Assembly (NCBI GenBank): GCA_038087875.1
Contig: CM075989.1
Coordinates: 18,044,001-18,108,000, forward strand
Direction: 5' to 3'
Source of the DNA: Malacoraja senta
Taxonomy: Eukaryota
Length of the DNA: 64,000 nt
Part shown: positions 13,001 through 57,300 of the stretch, piece by piece
How the letters are laid out: each line of letters starts with the position of its first letter
Position numbering within the stretch: the first letter of the stretch is position 1
Position numbers and translations under genes: made by a program
The notes under the pieces: model-generated
Database searches by the model: none
Told to the model about the DNA's origin: nothing
The model's input: the letters and a program-made list of their open reading frames with translations, nothing else

Positions 13001-15109
13001 TGTGTGGAGCTACTCTGGCATTTCCCTACCTCTAGTTCTCTTCCCCCCTCCTCTCTCCTCCCTCCCCCTCTCCCCCCTCTCCACCTCCCTCCCCCCCCCA
13101 CCCCCACTACCTTCAGTTTGTAGAAGGGTTACATCCCGAAACGTCACCCATCCTTTTTCTCCAGAGATGCTGCCTGATCCACTAAGTTACTCCAACACTT
13201 TGTGTCCATCTAAGAGCTACTCCTAATTGGGTTGATGCTATTTACTGGAGTCATAGGTCATAGAGTGATACTTGTCCACACGGGCCAACATGTCCCAGCT
13301 ACACTAGTCCCTAAGTGATAGGAGCAGAATTAGGCCATTCAGCCATTCAATCATGGCTGATCTATCTCTCCCTCCTAACCCCATTACTCCAGCATTTTTT
13401 GCCTATCTTTGGTGTAAACCAGCATCTGCAGTTCCTTCCTGCACGTTGGGTTTCAGTGTGCTGAGGCCTATGTCAGAATGGGGAAAAAAGAGAAAAGGTT
13501 TAAATTGCACTGAAGATTGGAGTGGTTTGGATCAGATGTAGGAAATATCTCTCACGGCGTGAGGCTGGAACTGTCTTGCTGATACATTCTTGTTGAAGAC
13601 ATCTGTTTGATAGATTAATGAGGCTGGTTGGGGAAAGAGAAAACTAACAAAGGGATGTGTAAAAGTTGACGTGCAGGTTAAATGTGGAGGGATTGCCCAG
13701 CAGATCAGGCGGTGTCAGTGGGGACAGCAGAACAAGTCAATATTATACAACCATCTGCAGCATTCCATCAGTAATATTTGCTTTTCTCCTCTCTAGCATC
13801 CCTGAAACAAATGTTTCTGGATCATTGTTACATTGCTATTCATGGCAGCTTCTTGCGTGCAAATTCTATTTAAACCCTGGAGAAACTCAGCGGGTGCAGC
13901 AGCATCTATGGAGCGAAGGAGATAGGCAACGTTTCGGGCCGAAACGTTGCCTATCTCCTTCGCTCCATAGATGCTGCTGCACCCACTGAGTTTCTCCAGC
14001 ATTTTTGTGTACCTTCGATTCTCCAGCATCTGCAGTTCCTTCTTTAACAATTCTATTTAAATCCTGTGTAGGAAAGAACTGCAGATGCTGGCTTAAACCG
14101 AAGATAGACACAAAAAGCTGGAGGAACTCAGCGGGTCAGGCAGCACCTCCGGAGAAAAGGTATAGGTGATGTTTCGGGTCGAGACTTTTCTTCAGTCTGA
14201 AGAAGGGTCTCGACCCGAAATGTCACCTATTCCTTTTCTCCGGAGATGCTGTCTGACCCGCTGAGATACTCCAGCGTTTGTGTCTATCTTCTACTTAAAC
14301 CCTGGTTCCATTTTCAAATGTGCCTCTTCAGTCATGCAGTCATTTGTTTAGATTTAGTTTAGTTTAGAGATACAGTGCGGAAACAGGCCCACCGAGTTCA
14401 CCCCATACATTGGCACTATCCTACACACACTAGGGACAATTTACAATTTTACTGAAGCCAATTAGCCTACAAACATGTACGTCTTTGGAATGTAGGGGGA
14501 AACCGAAGCACCCGGGGGAAAAAACCCAGGCAGTCACGGGGAGAATGTACAAACTCCGTACAGACAGCACCCATAATCGGGATCGAACCCGGGTCTCTGG
14601 TGCTGCAAGCGCTGTAAGGCAGCAACTCTACCGCTGCACCACCGTGCCGCCCTATATTTCAGCCTTACAAGCATCAGAGACCTGGGTTTGATCCGGGGCA
14701 GAGAGGCTGAATGGTGGCCGGGCGAGGAGAGGGACGATCTGGACGGATGCGAGGGCTGCAGTGGGTCTTTATGGCCAGGTGCAGCTTGGACTTTGAAAAT
14801 GGTGCCAACCTGGTGACTCTTGTATACGGTCTCAGTGGGCTGTCTTAGTACACTTTGTACTTAATCTGGGATTGTGTTTATGTATCGCTATAATACTGAA
14901 CTGTATGGAGAAAAATCAGCTTCAGTTCAGTTATTGTCACATGTACCGAGGTACAGTGAAAAGCTTTTGTTGCGTGGTAACCAGTCAGCGGAAAGACAAT
15001 ACATGATTACAATCGATCCATTTACAGTGTACAGATACGTGATAAGGGAATAACGTTTAGTGCAAGGTAAAGCCTGAAAAGTCCGATCAAGGATAGTCCG
15101 AGAGTCACC

Positions 15110-15249
15110 TTCTTCTTCTTGCGTATGGCGTGCACAGCCTAAAGTTGTAGGACAACGTGCTCTATTTGATCTTATTTGATTGTGCACGCCAGGTTGATTG
15201 CATTCGTTGAAACAGGGCGGACCACGTGAAGGTTGCAATCTCCCACCCC
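15110..15249 (-). mobile_element. 140-bp non-autonomous retroposon with 5' HDV-like ribozyme and (AAG)n tail
   Basis: 14-bp TSD gtccgag(a/g)gtcacc at 15096-15109 and 15250-15263. Ends CCATACGCAAGAAGAAGAA. Inserted in a Rex1/Babar-like fragment. Confidence 0.85.
15196..15249 (-). ncRNA. Minimal CPEB3/HDV-like self-cleaving ribozyme (predicted)
   Basis: P1 GGGGUGG/CCGCCCU, P2 GAUUGCA/UGCAAUC, P3 ACC/GGU, L3 UUCACGU, then GU, a 5-nt loop UUCAA in place of P4, and J4/2 CGAA (catalytic C at 15206). Confidence 0.85.
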
Positions 15250-16136
15250 GTCCGAGGGTCACCAACGAGGTAGATAGTTGTTCAGGACTGCTCTCCAGTT
15301 GTGGTAGCATGATTCAGTTGCTTGATAACAGCTGGGAAGTTCCTGAATCTGGAGGTGTGCGTTTTCACACTATACCTTTTGCCTGATGGGTGCGGGGAGA
15401 AGAGGGAGTGGCCAGGTTGCGACTATCCCGTGATCATGCTGCTGGCCTTGCCGAGGCAGCGTGAGGTGTAAATTGAGTCAACGGAAGGGAGGTTGGTTTG
15501 TGTGCGCACCTCGGTACGCGCGATACATTTGAACCATTGAACCATATGAGGAGGAGAACATTAATCTCTTGATGCTGGTGTGTGGGTGGACTGAAGGATC
15601 TGGATGATCTTCTGGTTTGAATAGTCTGCTCTGGGACTGGCTGTACACTGTGTTCAGTGATGTGCTAACCTGTTTGAGGGCGATGTTTAGACTTGAACTG
15701 CAACAGTGGTGTACGTACGTTATGGATCTTACACAATCCCATGGCTACATGGGAAGGGCCTTTTGTCGTCATTGTGAGGGGGTGGCTTTTAGGAGTATTG
15801 GGTGCATGTTTGGGCTTGCTGTTCACCCATCCTCACTAGAATATTCCTGTTGTGCGAGTAATGAGGAATATTGTGAATTGCCTCACTTTTAGCAGAATTA
15901 TCCCCGTCTAACGCAAAAGGCCCGGCACGGGTTCTGTCCCAGCAGAGAACGAGTGGGGGGACAACACTCTCTGGGAGATCGATGTTTTAGTTTAAATTTT
16001 AGTTTTGGAGATACAGCATGGAAACGGGCCCATGCTAATATTTAGTGGTATGTTGAACAAAAGTAGCCCATGTCCCCAGCAACATCAAAGTGAAGCTTCC
16101 TGCATCACTCACAGTGGCCAATGTCGGTTGACCATT

Positions 16137-21187: not shown

Positions 21188-22500
21188 TTAGTAAGTGTAC
21201 TTCTGCAGTGTTGTGACTGGGGATGTGGGCTGGCCAAAGGATGGTTTTGGTGGCACGTCTGGTTTAATGGAGGGCGTTCTCTTTATTCCCGACCTGGGCA
21301 GAGTGCCACTGCTTGAGTAGCTGCTCTGGCGGGACAGTGAGGTGGGCTGAATAACTAGTGGAGTCCCGTGCACAGAATCCATCCTCATGGGCGGCGCCGG
21401 GGGGAAATAGGCCCCCCGATTAAAACTGGGGTGCCGCGACAACATGGCTCCGTTCAACGAGCTGATAACATTTTTGGGGAGCACCGATATGGAGTGCCTC
21501 TGCGACGAATTTCTGGGGTAGCCCCGATCCCTCTCTCTCTCTAAACTCGACAGCTGGATGTTGGAGGTTGACGGAACGTCCACCCGCTTGGTGGGACTGT
21601 GTCTCGGAAGAGTAGAGGAAGGCGAATAGAGTGAAGCCTCCCGGTTTGGGACTTTGGGTGGGACCTCTACAATTTTGGACATGGGGCCCAGCATTACATT
21701 TTGACGAGTCATAGGTATGTCCCCCAAGATAGCTTTCGAGTTGGTACCACTTTCGTTGAGATGTTTGAGAAGGTCATTCAACGTGTTCCTAGCCTCGACG
21801 GCTCGTTGCTGTTCCTTCTTCCCAGAATGGCCAGGGATGGACATTTCTATGTTCTGCACCTTCCTTTCTGCCTTGTGGGCATTGGAATTTGAGAAGGACA
21901 TGTTGTAGGCATGTGTGGCATTGGGAAGTACCATGGCGCTGGGTATCTGGCCGTTGTGGTTGATGGGCGAATGGGGCGTGGGACTGGATGGGATGATTTG
22001 CGGGCTCTTCAGAGGCGATTCCTTCCTGGCCGCGTTAATGTTGTTTTGGGCTTTTTCCCACTGGTTCTTGATGGGCTGAATGCCTTTCTGGTGGAGTACC
22101 GGCGTGGACTCTGGCGTGGGCAAGGCCGCCAGCTCGGGGGGCTGCCCGTGGCTATCCACGATCATGGTCTTTGGGTCGCCGCTGGGCGGCAACTCCTTGC
22201 CGTTGGACAGCAGGTTTGTGTACAGCTTGGGGGTGTCGATGCTGTGCGGATACTCCTTGACGGGGCTGTCGAAGAGCCCGTTGAATTTAGTGAAGCTGCC
22301 GCTGGAGTCGGTGCACGATTGTGCCGACTCGGCGTCCTTGTTCATCTTCCTCGCCTTGCGCAGGTAGGTGTCGCGGTGACAGTACACAGCCAGGCCAGAA
22401 ATGAAGGCTCCCAGGACAAAGGCAGCCAGGACGCAGGTGATCAGAACATTCATGTGAACCATTTGGTTTGCGTCTCCGGCCTGCACCTCCCATCTCACAC
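21188..22500 (-). CDS. SEMA6D: SEMA6D last coding exon (transmembrane helix and cytoplasmic tail)
   Basis: gctccag|GT GTG AGA TGG. 436-aa ORF with SEMA6D-type VHMNVLITCVLAAFVLGAF, KDAESAQSCTDSSGSF, PPELAALPTPESTPVL, KRTPSIKPDVPPKPSF and C-terminal KYTY*. Confidence 0.97.
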
Positions 22501-24569
22501 CTGGAGCAGAGATAACATTAGAGCGTGAAAATATTAGCGTGTTCCCGTGCCGATGGTTCCCATTCAGGAACAGAATGTATTAGAAATGAAACACTAATGT
22601 TCAAACATCCCAATGCACCCAAACAAATGACACACAGTGCTGGAGTAACTCAGCGGGTCAGGCAGCATGTCTGGACAACATGGATAGGGGACATTTGGGG
22701 TCGGGTCACCTGAAAGGTGATGATTATTTCATTTTATTGTTATTTTGCTTTGTTTTTAACTTTTTTTGTTTTACATGTTGGAAATAACATATATATAAAG
22801 GTCACCTATCCATGTTCTTTAGACTTGCTGCCTGGCCCGCTGAGTTACTCCAGCACTTGTCTTTTTTTAAAAATTGTATACCAGCATCTGCAGTCTCTTG
22901 CTCCTACTTCCATACTCTATACTCTGACTGATGAAGGCCAAGACTGAAAGCCTTCTTGACCACCCTGTCTACTTGTGACGCCACCCTCAAGAAACCATGC
23001 ACCTGCACTCCTAGATCCCTCTGTTCCACAGCACTCCCCGGGGCTATTTTTGGTTTCATGAGCGGACAGATTTCATGGCCTTTTGTTTTCAGGGATTTCT
23101 AATTTGATTGTAGGAAATTCTCTGCACAAGTCTCTGAGCTTGTGCAGCGACTTCCATAAATGATATATTAACCACGAGTGCAGTCAAGTGCGAGGTCTCC
23201 TTGCGGGTAGCTTAGTTTGCACCGAGCACTATAAATGAGCGAATTCAAAACTTATTACAGGTTCACCAACGATCTTCTGGCAACTGGTGGTCCGTTGCCG
23301 ACCTCATTGAAACTTACAGAATAATGTTAAGCTTAGTAGATAAGAATGGATGTGGAAAGGGCGCTCTTTTAGAAAGGAGGTGAGGAGGAACTTCTTTAGT
23401 CAGAGGGTAGTTAATCTGTGGAACTCATTGCCACAGAGGGCTGTGGAGGCCACGCCAGTGGATGTTTTTAAGGCAGAGATAGACAAATTCTTGATTACAA
23501 CGGGGTTAATGGGGAGAAGGCAGGAAAATGGGATTAGGAGACAGAGATCAGCCATGATTGAATGGCGGAGTAGACTCGATGGGCCGAATGGCTTAATTCT
23601 GCTCCTATAACTAGCGAACTCCTATAATCTGGACAAAATCACGAGAGCGAACCTGAAATCCCCCGCCCCCCCAAAAGACCCCCCGAAAATGTCGAGCGCA
23701 GGCCTGGTGAGGATCTGTTCCCATGGCCAACATCCGAGGCTGACTTGGCAGGCCAGTATCTCGGCCCATCGGTGGTCTAGGTGGGCTGTTCTGGTACTGG
23801 TGGACTCCTCTCGGAGGCTATGACCTCCATTGGTCCAGGCCAAATGGATAATCCAGAGAGGCTCTGGAACCAAGGGTGCTGGAAAATCGGTGGTGGACCT
23901 GTACCAATTTTGCAGTGCGGTTAGAAGATATTTTGTGACACATAGGGTGGCGCAGCGGCAGAGTTGCTGTCTTACAGCACCAGGGACCCGGGTTCGATCC
24001 CGACTGCTGGTGCTGTCTGTACGGAGTTTGTACGTTCTCCCCATGACCTGCATGGGTTTTCTCCGGGTTCTCTGGTTTCCTCCCACACTCTAAAGACGTA
24101 CTGGTTTGTAGGTTAATTGGCTTGGTGTAATTGTAAATTGTCCCTAGAGTGCGTAGGATAGTGTTAGTGTGCAGGGATCGCTGGTCGGCGCTCTGCAGAG
24201 CCCTGGTGCCGTGCTGTATCTCTAAACCAAACAATCAGGCCTTTCTGAACCGGTCAGGTATCGGGTCATTGTGGTGTTTGCAATGGATTGTTCACATTGA
24301 CGCTGCCAGCCGAACTAATGCTTAAGGAATCACTCGGCAGATTTTCCTAAGCTTACACCCGGGAATGAAAGGTGCTGCCACAGGGGAGCAGCAAATTGGT
24401 CATGGAGTCTTTGCATCAAAGTCTCTGCCCTGTTACTGCAAGCCCACCTCCTCTCCCTCCCTGCTCCTGAGAGCTGCTCACCACGCCGCATCTCCCAGAT
24501 TATGATGGGGTGGGACACCAGATTTGGCAAATTTACCTTGTCTTTATTAAAGTTGAGAGCAGGGATCAG

Positions 24570-53256: not shown

Positions 53257-53411
53257 CTATTTAAAATAAAAGTTATGGAAGTAAATATAATGATCTGAGA
53301 GCTGGTGTTAGACATTTCAGGTCTTTGATGAAGATTACTGCTGGACAATTTAAATATAATGTTTACATTTCTGATCTGACACAACCAGATGAAGTATAGA
53401 GACCAGCATAC

Positions 53412-53524
53412 CTGCCACCAATGTAAAGCATGTTCTCAATTTTCAACATAAGCTGGTAATCCAGTCGATGGACAGATTCATTCGCCAAGAGCCGACCTCT
53501 GAACAAGGGATGTTTGTCTCGAAA
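53412..53524 (-). CDS. SEMA6D: SEMA6D coding exon 2 (+1 indel)
   Basis: ttttgcag|...|gtatgc. Encodes (F)[37 protein letters not shown]. 113 nt, whereas phase 1->2 needs 112. Confidence 0.92.
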
Positions 53525-53627
53525 CTGCAAAACAGAATTGGGCTCCATCATCAAAAAAAAGCTGGGAAAATTCATGAGTCAAGAGTGTTTTATTGTCGTG
53601 TGTCCCGAAACGGAACAATGAAATTCT

Positions 53628-54302
<675 letters not shown>

Positions 54303-57300
54303 TAACCAACTGCATGGGGGAAGGCACTGCATTGTACTCAGATGGCACCTAAACAAAACTATCAATATAACTGCTTTCTTGTTGATGGCTGCCAGACAAA
54401 TACACGTTGTCAAGAGTCAAGGGTGTGTTTAGGTCATATGTCCCAGATAGAACAATGAAATTCTTACTTGCAGTACGTACTTACAGTGGCATGGTAAGTA
54501 TTGTTTGGACTGCCCTCCTGCTCAGATTTTGTCTCTCCTACTTAATAAATATCTTTATATAATTGGGATCCATTGACACATGTCCCCCCCCCCACCCCCA
54601 CCCCCCCCCCTCACACACATTCAATGTTGCAGGACGGGGAGAGCTGGGGTGATATCCAGAGTGGACACTGCACTTGCTCGGCAGAAAGGGATCTATTTAC
54701 GAATCAGAGGTAGAAACACAGAAAATAAGTGCAGTAGTAGGCCATTCGACCCTTCGAGCCATTCAATATGATCATTGTTGATCATCCAAAATCAGAACCC
54801 CGGTACTGCTTTCCCCCCCCCATGTCCCTTGATTCCATTAGCCCCAACAGCTATACCCAACTCTCTCTTGAAAATTTGGGTAGATTTCGGTGTTACTTTC
54901 GGTTTAGGAACACAGATGGTCTCATCTATAACTTTCTTTGCATCTGACTAGCACGTGTCAAACTAATTTAAGTAGGTGTGGAATAAACCCCAGTAGTGTG
55001 AACCGTGATGAAAGGCCATAGTGATCAGTGTCGTATATTGACTTGCTCCTCCACTCAAATGTTCTTGCAATGAAGGCCACACCACCAGCTTTGGTTGCTA
55101 ATTTTCAAAGATTTATTTACAAGGGCTCCAGAACACTTTTGCTTTTCTGAAGAAGGGTCTCGACACGAAACGTCACCCATTCCTTCACCCCAGAGATGCT
55201 CCAACATTTTGTGTCTATCTTTTGGTTTAAACCAGCATCTGCAGTTCCTTCTTACACGTTGCTTTCCTACTTTTTCTGCCAAAGTAGATGAATTTACAAT
55301 TGTTCACATGATATCCCAACTGGAAAGTACTCGCCCATTCTAATCTTATAATGGTGGAGAAAGAGGCCATTCAGCTCATCTGGTCCATGTTTGCTCCTGG
55401 AGAGTCATCCCATTGAGCCCACTCCACCACTGACTGTAACGTTCTCTCATTGTCCAACAGTGAGGGATCATTTGTAGCAGCCATCAGTTTGTCTTTGGCA
55501 TGTTGGCTCAAGAACCTTATGCCGGGAGGCACTCAGGTAGAGAATTAGCAAACCGCGCAGACAGGCAGACAAGCTGAGGATTGAAGATAGACACAAAATG
55601 CTGGAGTAACTCAGCGAGACAGGCAGCATCAGGCTGAAGAAGGGTTTTGACTCGAAACGTCACCCATTCCTTCTATCCAGAGATGCTGCCCGTCCCGCTG
55701 AGTTACTCCAGCATTCTGTGTCTCTCTTCGGTGTAAACCAGCATCTGCAGTTCCTTCCTGCAACAGAGGTCAGGATTGAACCCGGGTCTCTGGAGCGGAG
55801 GCAGCAGAACTAAACCGCTGCACCACCCTGCCTGCTCCACGGAACTTCCCCGTTTCCTCCTCACAGCAGGCGGCTCGGTGGCGCAGCAGGTAGACCCGCT
55901 GCCTCACAGCGACAGAGACCACGTGTTCGATCCTGTCCTCGGGTGCAGTCTCTGCGGAGTTTGCTCAAATCCGTCTACGAGTATAGACACGAATGAATGT
56001 GCTTGTTCTAATTATGTTAATGGCTTGCCGCAACATGCACTGATAAATGGCACTCAATATACCCAATAACACTATTTGTGGTTATATCTCCACTCTACAG
56101 AGTGAGGGGACCTGGGCATGAGTCGACCACCAGAGTCTTGTGTTGGGCTTGGTTGATCTCCAGGTCCCTGTGATACTCAGGGCTTTCCTCCAGCCACTTG
56201 CCCCACTGACTAGGACATGCAATTCCCATTGAGTGGATTTGAGAGACACCACACTCTTGCATGCTGCCCTGATATCCTCCCCCTCCTCCCCAGTTGAATC
56301 AATGGCACACAGCTACCTCTGGTCGAAACCCTTCTCTGGTGCAGAACGGACCCAGAGATGTACAGGACCTCACAGGGGGTCATGATGGTCCCATTTTAGG
56401 TCTTTTCATTGGGTGTTTAACATTGAGGTATTTCAGACTGAATCTTGGTCAAGTTTATGATTATATTTTAAAGGGGGAACGTGCCCAAGAATGAGAGTCA
56501 GCCAACTGTTGTAGTTACCAAAGTTAGACACAAAATGCTGGAGTAACTCAGCGGATCAGGCACTCCAACACTTTGTGTCTACCTTCATCTGCAACCAACA
56601 ATCTGCGGTTCTTTTCGACATGTTTTAGATATCAATTCAGTAAAGGAAAAAAACAAAAGAACTGATTGGCTTTACAAAATAATCTCAGGGAAATAATGTC
56701 AAGATAGTGGCCAGAGTTCCACCTTCCTCAACTCCCCTCAAACCCCACTGGGAATGTCAGCAACGCTCCTATGCAGATCCCTCAATTTTATGCTTTTAAA
56801 TCCAATATATTAATACGGAAAAAACCCTAATATTTCCACCGCTGTATATCCACAGCCCCTCTTACAGTTGTGGTACGAAATAACTCTCTAGCCATCCTTG
56901 ACAGGAGGTACAGAGGTCAGGGTGAGAAGGTCAACCTATTTTTGCAATGATGCCTGGTGTAGCTTCATGGCTCAGTACACAGCGTCCACAGAGATCTGGC
57001 CACATTTTAGTTGGGGTTTTGTGTCATGGATGGCGTGGCAAGGTCACCTTTATTGCTCAGTGCTGGTGGTGCAAAGATGTTTGAAGGACCTAGCTGCCCA
57101 GAGGGGGTAGTTGAAGTGGGTGCTACAGCAATATTTAAAGACAGTTGGACAGGTACATGGATAGGAATGGTTTAAAGCAATATGGGCCAAATGGGACTAG
57201 CTTGGATGGGGTATCTTGGTTGGCATGACCAATCTATCACTCTCTGATCATCTCCTTGGCCAGTATAGACCTTGTTATGTTGCCACTACATGTACCAGGG

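Follow-up and report, generated by a model that had tools for sequence, protein, structure and literature searches.

This study describes F1, our name for a 140-nt retroposon on the minus strand of a 64,000-nt stretch of the Malacoraja senta genome (assembly GCA_038087875.1, contig CM075989.1, positions 18,044,001 to 18,108,000), which is called the window below. We read F1 as a non-autonomous retroposon without long terminal repeats (a non-LTR retroposon) that has no open reading frame (ORF), is mobilized by a long interspersed nuclear element (LINE), and is headed by a 54-nt minimal ribozyme of the CPEB3 type, predicted to be self-cleaving, that belongs to the hepatitis delta virus (HDV)-like class and lacks the P4 helix. 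We put the probability of this reading at about 0.75. It builds on a high-copy family with sharp boundaries, target-site duplications (TSDs) and (AAG)n tails, on covariation of the fold between head types, and on two LINE lineages with a related head and the same type of tail.

This reading would extend ribozyme-headed non-autonomous retroposons to a vertebrate, where they are present in thousands of young copies. F1 and its companion family F2 would also give an animal genome a very abundant natural HDV-like ribozyme without P4; minimal forms have hitherto been described almost entirely in connection with phages.

F1 and F2 as retroposon families

The F1 copy occupies window positions 15249..15110, and its parts and flanks are as follows.

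15250-15263: upstream TSD copy, reading GTCCGAGGGTCACC on the plus strand and adjoining G1 directly
15243..15249, minus strand: 5' strand of P1, GGGGTGG; 15249 is the predicted G1, the first base past the cleavage site
15234..15240, minus strand: 5' strand of P2, GATTGCA, pairing with 15196-15202
15221..15233, minus strand: P3 (ACC), L3 (TTCACGT) and P3' (GGT)
15212..15220, minus strand: 3' strand of P1, CCGCCCT, followed by GT (J1/4, the P1.1 partner)
15207..15211, minus strand: 5-nt linker TTCAA, at the place of P4 in other HDV-like ribozymes
15203..15206, minus strand: J4/2, CGAA; its C, at 15206, is predicted to act as the catalytic cytosine
15196..15202, minus strand: 3' strand of P2, TGCAATC, closing the 54-nt ribozyme head
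15121..15195, minus strand: 3' body, ending in ...CCATACGC
15110..15120 (read from 15120 to 15110), minus strand: (AAG)n tail, here AAGAAGAAGAA
15096-15109, minus strand: downstream TSD copy, GTCCGAGAGTCACC

All 54 nt of the head fit the double pseudoknot with zero mismatches. The segments P1, J1/2, P2, P3, L3, P3', P1', J1/4, linker, J4/2 and P2' read, in this order, GGGGTGG-GA-GATTGCA-ACC-TTCACGT-GGT-CCGCCCT-GT-TTCAA-CGAA-TGCAATC, and the helices comprise 7 bp in P1 (with G1.U as the first pair), 7 bp in P2, and 3 bp in P3. Older F1 copies and most public contigs have TTCGA as the linker instead of TTCAA. Within the 3' body, an 11-bp long-range stem (TGGCGTGCACA/TGTGCACGCCA, 15181-15191 with 15126-15136) encloses two small hairpins; the minimum free energy (MFE) of this 3' domain is -22.8 kcal/mol (z = -3.63), and none of 200 shuffles was as stable. 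The TSD is 14 bp long with 13 of the 14 bases matching, both copies being forms of GTCCGAG(G/A)GTCACC. The head of a classical short interspersed nuclear element (SINE) derives from tRNA, 7SL or 5S RNA and carries A and B boxes; in F1 we found no RNA polymerase III (Pol III) A box or B box, even with 1-2 mismatches allowed, and no T4 run.

The preliminary description of this DNA, made from its letters, had proposed a 140-nt insert with a 14-bp TSD and an (AAG)n tail, a double-pseudoknot head whose predicted cleavage site coincides with the 5' boundary, an 11-bp 3' hairpin, and no Pol III boxes. All of these features were borne out, the TSD with one mismatch and the head with compensatory changes between head types, and the copy-number check suggested there confirmed a real family. 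The 28-nt core of the F1 head occurs 7,991 times in the 1.94-Gb genome at no more than two mismatches, compared with 0 occurrences of a reversed-pattern control. A first-look search had returned 1616 candidates, and all 40 of the genome matches scored were 97-100% identical. Among 30 fetched copies, which include two locus pairs that are segmental duplicates, a TSD is present in 28 (median length about 12 bp) and adjoins the predicted G1 in 24 of those 28, while the tails differ by copy, from (AAG)1 plus AA up to (AAG)6. Public contigs from four runs and at least three coded organisms diverge into unrelated flank at 15249 and at 15109-15114; these runs consist of contigs of guessed kind, from which RNA ends cannot be read.

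F2 is a second P4-less, ribozyme-headed retroposon family, about 175 nt long, with an (AAG)n tail and TSDs.

L014:2268-2445, minus strand: F2 copy, a chance encounter; further F2 copies in L031-L060

Its head reads GGGGTC-AA-GGAAAGA-GCG-TTCACGT-CGC-GGCCCT-GT-TTCCA-CCAA-TCTTTCC and has 2,056 matches in the genome. A TSD was found in 26 of 30 F2 loci, adjoining G1 in 21 and lying 1 nt off in the other five, so that in the two families together it adjoins G1 in 45 of the 54 copies with a TSD. Such TSDs point to an RNA that starts at G1; they speak for the start site and not for the chemistry that makes it. In both F1 and F2 the P4 helix is absent and 5 unpaired nt stand in its place, and these P4-less heads sit essentially on F1 and F2 bodies only. 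Two pattern searches for them elsewhere turned up 0 and 3 exceptions.

A search for a LINE carrying the exact F1 head, the exact F2 head or the F1 3' domain gave 9, 0 and 3 pattern matches, and those inspected were small-deletion variants of F1; the patterns, written with IUPAC 'not' codes, would catch about one-fifth to one-third of true cases. L062 and L063 were considered as head-to-LINE junctions and rejected, as they are F2 copies broken by nested unrelated insertions (L062:1566-2160 and L063:1565-2545). One nested insertion in F2 is a CR1-like LINE 3' end (LVRPHLEYCVQFWSP... ORF tail, TTCTATG-type repeats), and tRNA-derived SINE copies lie near broken F2 copies (e.g., L062 at about 2290-2600).

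The double-pseudoknot fold and the related LINEs

Comparison of the heads of F1, F2 and LINE-B, one of the two LINE lineages described below, showed 0 broken pairs in P1, P2 and P3, with 10 of 18 positions changed on both sides. Seven head types all fit the same architecture, although their P4 region ranges from 40 nt to 5 nt. When six heads are aligned without gaps, 60 of 60 P1/P3 cells are paired, seven of ten pairs are changed on both sides, and G1.U is the first P1 pair in every head; the covariation of 0.80 compares with 0.08-0.21 in slid registers and was reached by none of 500 shuffles. In every intact head type P2 pairs along its whole length, each time with another sequence. The residues that are invariant over all head types are G1.U, TTC(A/T)CGT in L3, the GT after P1, and the C of J4/2 (C-N-N-A before P2'). 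MAFFT alignments, in which the P4-less and P4-bearing heads and also the F2 gaps fell out of structural register, were left out of these counts.

The topology was met by only 23 of 200,000 shuffles of the F1 head, and the nested MFE structure of the head is exactly P1+P3. A covariance model seeded on F1 recovers F2 heads at 26-33.5 bits; the same model fails over long P4 inserts and returns LINE heads truncated or misplaced at 12-14 bits. The predicted HDV-like fold is backed by sequence comparison and not by energy. The covariation expected in the preliminary description was found between head types; inside a family it failed to appear, as described in the next section.

Two related LINE lineages, LINE-A and LINE-B, combine an ORF of about 1000 aa with an (AAG)n tail and a full-size ribozyme-type 5' head, in which the P4 region measures 15-40 nt. 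The elements are about 3.2 kb long and encode an AP-endonuclease, a reverse transcriptase (RT) and a C-terminal Cys/His knuckle, with no RNase H. The automatic names on homologues of the LINE protein were uninformative as to clade. As an additional observation, many full-length relatives of this protein lie on public contigs of 3.1-3.6 kb, which is about the unit length of the element.

LINE-B was found as the third (AAG)n-tailed repeat in L022 and L023, where the C-terminus of its ORF carries a C-x-C...H...C knuckle. The genome holds at least 5,958 LINE-B candidates, mostly broken, and the full-length relatives encode proteins of about 1000 aa with AP-endonuclease and RT domains. Four near-full copies all open with the head directly after unrelated flank, the head reading GGGAGAG-A-TGTCGGCA-ACC-TTCTCGT-GGT-CTCTCCT-GT-(40 nt)-C-N-N-A-TGCCGATA, with the ATG of the ORF falling within P2'. 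One copy of about 3.2 kb comprises the head, the ORF, a ...CATTCGC(AAG)n end and a 9-bp TSD. The LINE-B copy in L091 shows a 16-nt duplication of its first bases.

LINE-A is a second, younger lineage that surfaced in a genome scan with the Rfam model of the CPEB3 ribozyme. Its head reads GGGGATC-AA-GGTAGAA-GCG-TTCACGT-CGC-GATCCCT-GT-(8-bp P4)-CGAA-TTCTACC, and its N-termini are 95-100% identical over about 14 copies. In one copy the ORF is intact, encodes 1002 aa and shares 37% identity over its full length with a LINE-B relative; the 3' end has a 23-nt 3' untranslated region (UTR) followed by the (AAG)n tail, with a TSD of 10 bp. [quoted passage not shown]

The F1 and LINE-B heads share 16 of 17 bases over GCAACCTTC(A/T)CGTGGTC, and the F2 and LINE-A heads are identical in about 32 of 38 columns by an eye count. 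Among 78 metagenome loci with foreign relatives, just two of which include a 5' end, none met the strict descriptor. One metagenome contig (L110) carries a LINE relative with 49% identity and, about 150-225 nt upstream of the ORF match at 366, an arrangement that looks HDV-like by eye, GGGGAAC...ACC-TCCACGT-GGT-GTTCCCC-GG...GCTCATA; its first pair is G-C and not G.U, its J4/2 is longer, and it failed the strict descriptor.

Source of the exact 5' end

Based on these features, we infer that F1 and F2 are co-transcribed with other sequences, cleave themselves and are mobilized in trans, probably by a LINE of the LINE-A or LINE-B lineages. An F1 copy would be transcribed inside a longer host or read-through transcript, and the ribozyme would cut directly 5' of G1 and leave an RNA that begins exactly at the first base of F1. 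The (AAG)n tail, perhaps together with the stable 3' stem-loop, would then be taken by the RT of a resident LINE having the ORF of about 1000 aa (AP-endonuclease, RT, Cys/His knuckle), a full-size head of the same type and an (AAG)n end. Target-primed reverse transcription up to the RNA 5' end would yield full-length copies with TSDs of about 12 bp adjoining G1. Release from a longer transcript by the head, proposed here by analogy with R2, RTE and L1Tc, would explain the exact 5' ends. HDV-like ribozymes are described as processing R2, RTE, baggins and L1Tc elements, and R2 SIDEs and NARTc are described as non-autonomous elements with a ribozyme head.

Several observations weigh against this reading. 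Many contigs from the public runs cross the F1 5' boundary into the flank, and these may be DNA or uncleaved RNA. An internal promoter could equally give a sharp 5' end. F1 and F2 have no P4, and natural P4-less forms are known to us from a statement in the literature that they exist. The MFE of the F1 head is not better than that of shuffles (z = +0.61; 139 of 200 as stable). In Rfam, F1 scores best with RF02682, at 14.4 bits where the cut-off is 44 (E = 3.1), so that no gathering score is reached, and RF00622, the model of the mammalian CPEB3 ribozyme, gives no match on F1 at E <= 10; the RF02682 match is co-terminal with the predicted ribozyme. Inside a family the variants consist of CpG decay with no compensation, the pattern that dead copies should show, and the covariation therefore depends on comparison between families. 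Finally, the F1 and F2 bodies have no significant similarity to the 5' and 3' regions of LINE-B (270-296 of 2000 shuffles score as high).

Because of this last result, the assignment of a LINE partner rests on the common tail and the related head, and 'SIDE-like' is a fitter label for F1 and F2 than internal deletions. The (AAG)n tail is the sole part that they share with the LINE-B 3' ends. The check suggested in the preliminary description, for an autonomous LINE that shares both ends with F1, was borne out for the head type and the tail and failed for the 3' UTR, where no significant similarity to LINE-B was found. A by-eye impression that the F1 and F2 bodies derive from LINE UTRs was likewise dropped, not being significant against LINE-B.

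Among the alternatives, the one that survives best, and which we still consider unlikely, is that an internal promoter at the DNA level starts transcription at G1, either alone or in addition to a ribozyme, with the fold being secondary or protein-binding. Such a promoter is also expected to give a fixed 5' end at random insertion sites, about 8,000 copies are many for an element relying on read-through transcription, and Pr77 of L1Tc/NARTc is described as an internal promoter and an HDV-like ribozyme together. However, Pol III boxes and a T4 terminator were not found in F1, and the single-stranded bases that are conserved fall on the catalytic core of the HDV and CPEB3 ribozymes. Moreover, between head types the pairing is conserved and the helix sequence is not, which indicates selection on RNA rather than on a DNA motif.

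It is quite improbable, in our view, that the heads are dead relics in which loss of P4 inactivated the ribozyme, the fold being kept for binding of the LINE protein and the 5' end being set otherwise. The R2 protein is described as binding a pseudoknot inside the R2 HDV-like ribozyme, and the F1 head is both unrecognized by curated models and thermodynamically unremarkable, as this explanation would have it. Against this, two P4-less families, independent of each other and represented by thousands of young copies, retain the predicted catalytic C, G1.U and L3; P4-less HDV-like ribozymes occur in nature according to the literature; and the TSDs adjoin G1, which requires an RNA beginning there. 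The notion that an ordinary short retroposon has a 5' end that can be drawn by chance as a double pseudoknot draws on the ease with which helices of 3-7 bp are found and on the ordinary MFE z-score, but is effectively refuted by the rarity of the topology among shuffles, by its retention in seven sequence-divergent head types, by a covariation that none of 500 shuffles matched, and by scores of 48-64 bits for related heads with RF00622.

Relation to the CPEB3 ribozyme and other known systems

The likeness to the mammalian CPEB3 ribozyme that the preliminary description had pointed out is evident in F1 at the level of single residues. In a nuclear magnetic resonance (NMR) study of the CPEB3 ribozyme, U20.G25, C22 and A23 are named and the 4-nt J4/2 is given as C57-G58-A59-A60. 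The L3 of F1 has the same bases at 20, 22, 23 and 25, and its J4/2 is the same CGAA, located at 44-47 owing to the missing P4. The likeness to CPEB3 is most marked in F2 and the LINE heads, the F2 head being nearer to the CPEB3 model than that of F1. RF00622, whose gathering cut-off is 35 bits, aligns F2 (L034) end to end at 27.9 bits (E = 1.3e-5); 19 contiguous nt are identical to its consensus (AGCGUUCACGUCGCGGCCC), and the 18-nt P4 is replaced by 5 nt. Another F2 head (L044) reaches 36.3 bits, and the murine CPEB3 ribozyme primer GTTCACGTCGCGGCC is an exact 15-mer of F2. The claimed likeness holds for the L3 and J4/2 residues of F1, the F2 15-mer and the sister heads (48-64 bits), while F1 itself falls below every Rfam threshold.

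Genome-wide, 39 of the 51 RF00622 matches listed (59 candidates scored) reach at least 35 bits, the best with 64.2 bits, and further matches of 61-65 nt, identity unchecked, score 35-43.7 bits. Five fetched head types (LINE-A, B, C and D heads) score 47.7-61.3 bits; types B (L102), C (L103 and L105) and D (L104), which are mostly decayed retroposon heads, account for 47.7-59.7 bits. The LINE-B heads gave no match with the Rfam models. In P3, L3, J1/4 and J4/2, some skate heads agree with the mammalian CPEB3 sequence, and the P4 5' strand CAGAUUC is identical in them as well. Type C, known from decayed copies, is closest to the mammalian sequence, the start of P4 included: 18 contiguous nt from P1' into the P4 5' strand (GGCCCCUGUCAGAUUCUG) equal the RF00622 consensus, and P2 differs from it by one compensated pair (AGCAGGA/UCCUGCU compared with AGCAGAA/UUCUGCU). 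By eye, type C matches the elephant CPEB3 ribozyme, as printed in a supplement, at about 50 of 59 positions.

P2 and the P4 5' strand are helices unconstrained by catalysis, and their sharing therefore argues for common descent rather than convergence. We give an even chance to the proposal that the CPEB3 ribozyme of mammals did not arise in that group as something new but was exapted from a 5' head of this LINE/SINE superfamily, a superfamily that in skates remains young. As heads that pass the CPEB3 model sit on LINEs of a cartilaginous fish, the origin of the CPEB3 ribozyme becomes directly testable. If the proposal is true, the skate heads are the missing outgroups for the CPEB3 ribozyme, and F1 and F2 are natural P4-deletion experiments on a CPEB3-type core. 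The mammalian ribozyme (RF00622) has the same L3, J1/4 and J4/2 as the skate heads; it is, however, single-copy, intronic, conserved in mammals, equipped with a 7-bp P4 and so far reported from mammals only, whereas the skate heads are multi-copy retroposon heads in a cartilaginous fish, with no P4 in F1 and F2.

The kind of element to which F1 belongs is already known from R2 SIDEs and NARTc. The vertebrate host, the high copy number, the P4-less form and a CPEB3-type core outside mammals are new as far as we searched; our literature search found no earlier report of such elements, and Repbase and Dfam, which lay outside that search, may bear on priority. The R2 SIDEs of Drosophila are described as short, ORF-less elements that, like F1 and F2, join a 5' HDV-like ribozyme to a 3' end used by the RT of a LINE, their 5' ends being set through self-cleavage of a co-transcript. 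Unlike F1 and F2, they are rare, specific to ribosomal DNA (rDNA) and clearly derived from R2 or R1, whereas the skate families are dispersed, present in thousands of copies, P4-less, and without a demonstrable LINE-derived body.

The NARTc and RIME elements of trypanosomatids have a poly(A)-type tail. Like F1 and F2, they are described as dispersed, non-autonomous elements paired with a LINE whose 5' HDV-like ribozyme (L1Tc/ingi Pr77, L1TcRz) they have in common. They differ in their protist host and in a 77-nt head that doubles as a promoter, and a CPEB3-type core has not been reported there.

The minimal (P4-less) HDV-like and theta ribozymes are, like the heads of F1 and F2, natural double pseudoknots lacking the P4 domain; unlike them, they are described as metagenomic, about 99% in bacteriophages and many beside tRNAs. 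The preliminary description had expected a natural, nearly P4-less ribozyme, and P4 is indeed absent from F1 and F2; such forms were, however, already known from phages and metagenomes. Lastly, the bipartite non-autonomous LINEs and LINE-derived SINE parts of the RTE and Vingi groups (Kojima 2018) are also ORF-less with a microsatellite-type tail, and keep the extreme 5' end of the LINE, for which a 5' ribozyme is proposed as the reason in that report. Vingi is given there without a listed ribozyme, and the bodies are recognizably LINE 5' and 3' UTRs, whereas F1 and F2 have the head type and the tail alone in common with a LINE.

The F1 copy in the window is itself inserted in another interspersed repeat (15050-15109 and 15250-15310, with high contig depth). 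Public contigs join the F1 flanks across the insertion site with other letters between them, like paralogous empty sites. The host gene in the window is represented by the last exon of semaphorin-6D (21188-22579, minus strand), which is 98% identical to skate proteins, 89-91% to those of sharks and 62-70% to those of tetrapods, which marks the genome as that of a skate; this long open exon encodes a transmembrane segment and the cytoplasmic tail. F1 is found some 6 kb downstream of it in the same orientation, and may fall within a long semaphorin-6D 3' UTR or a read-through region. Elsewhere in the window, positions 53393-54432 are occupied by a compound CA/TA-type simple repeat of about 1 kb with long spurious open frames on both strands.
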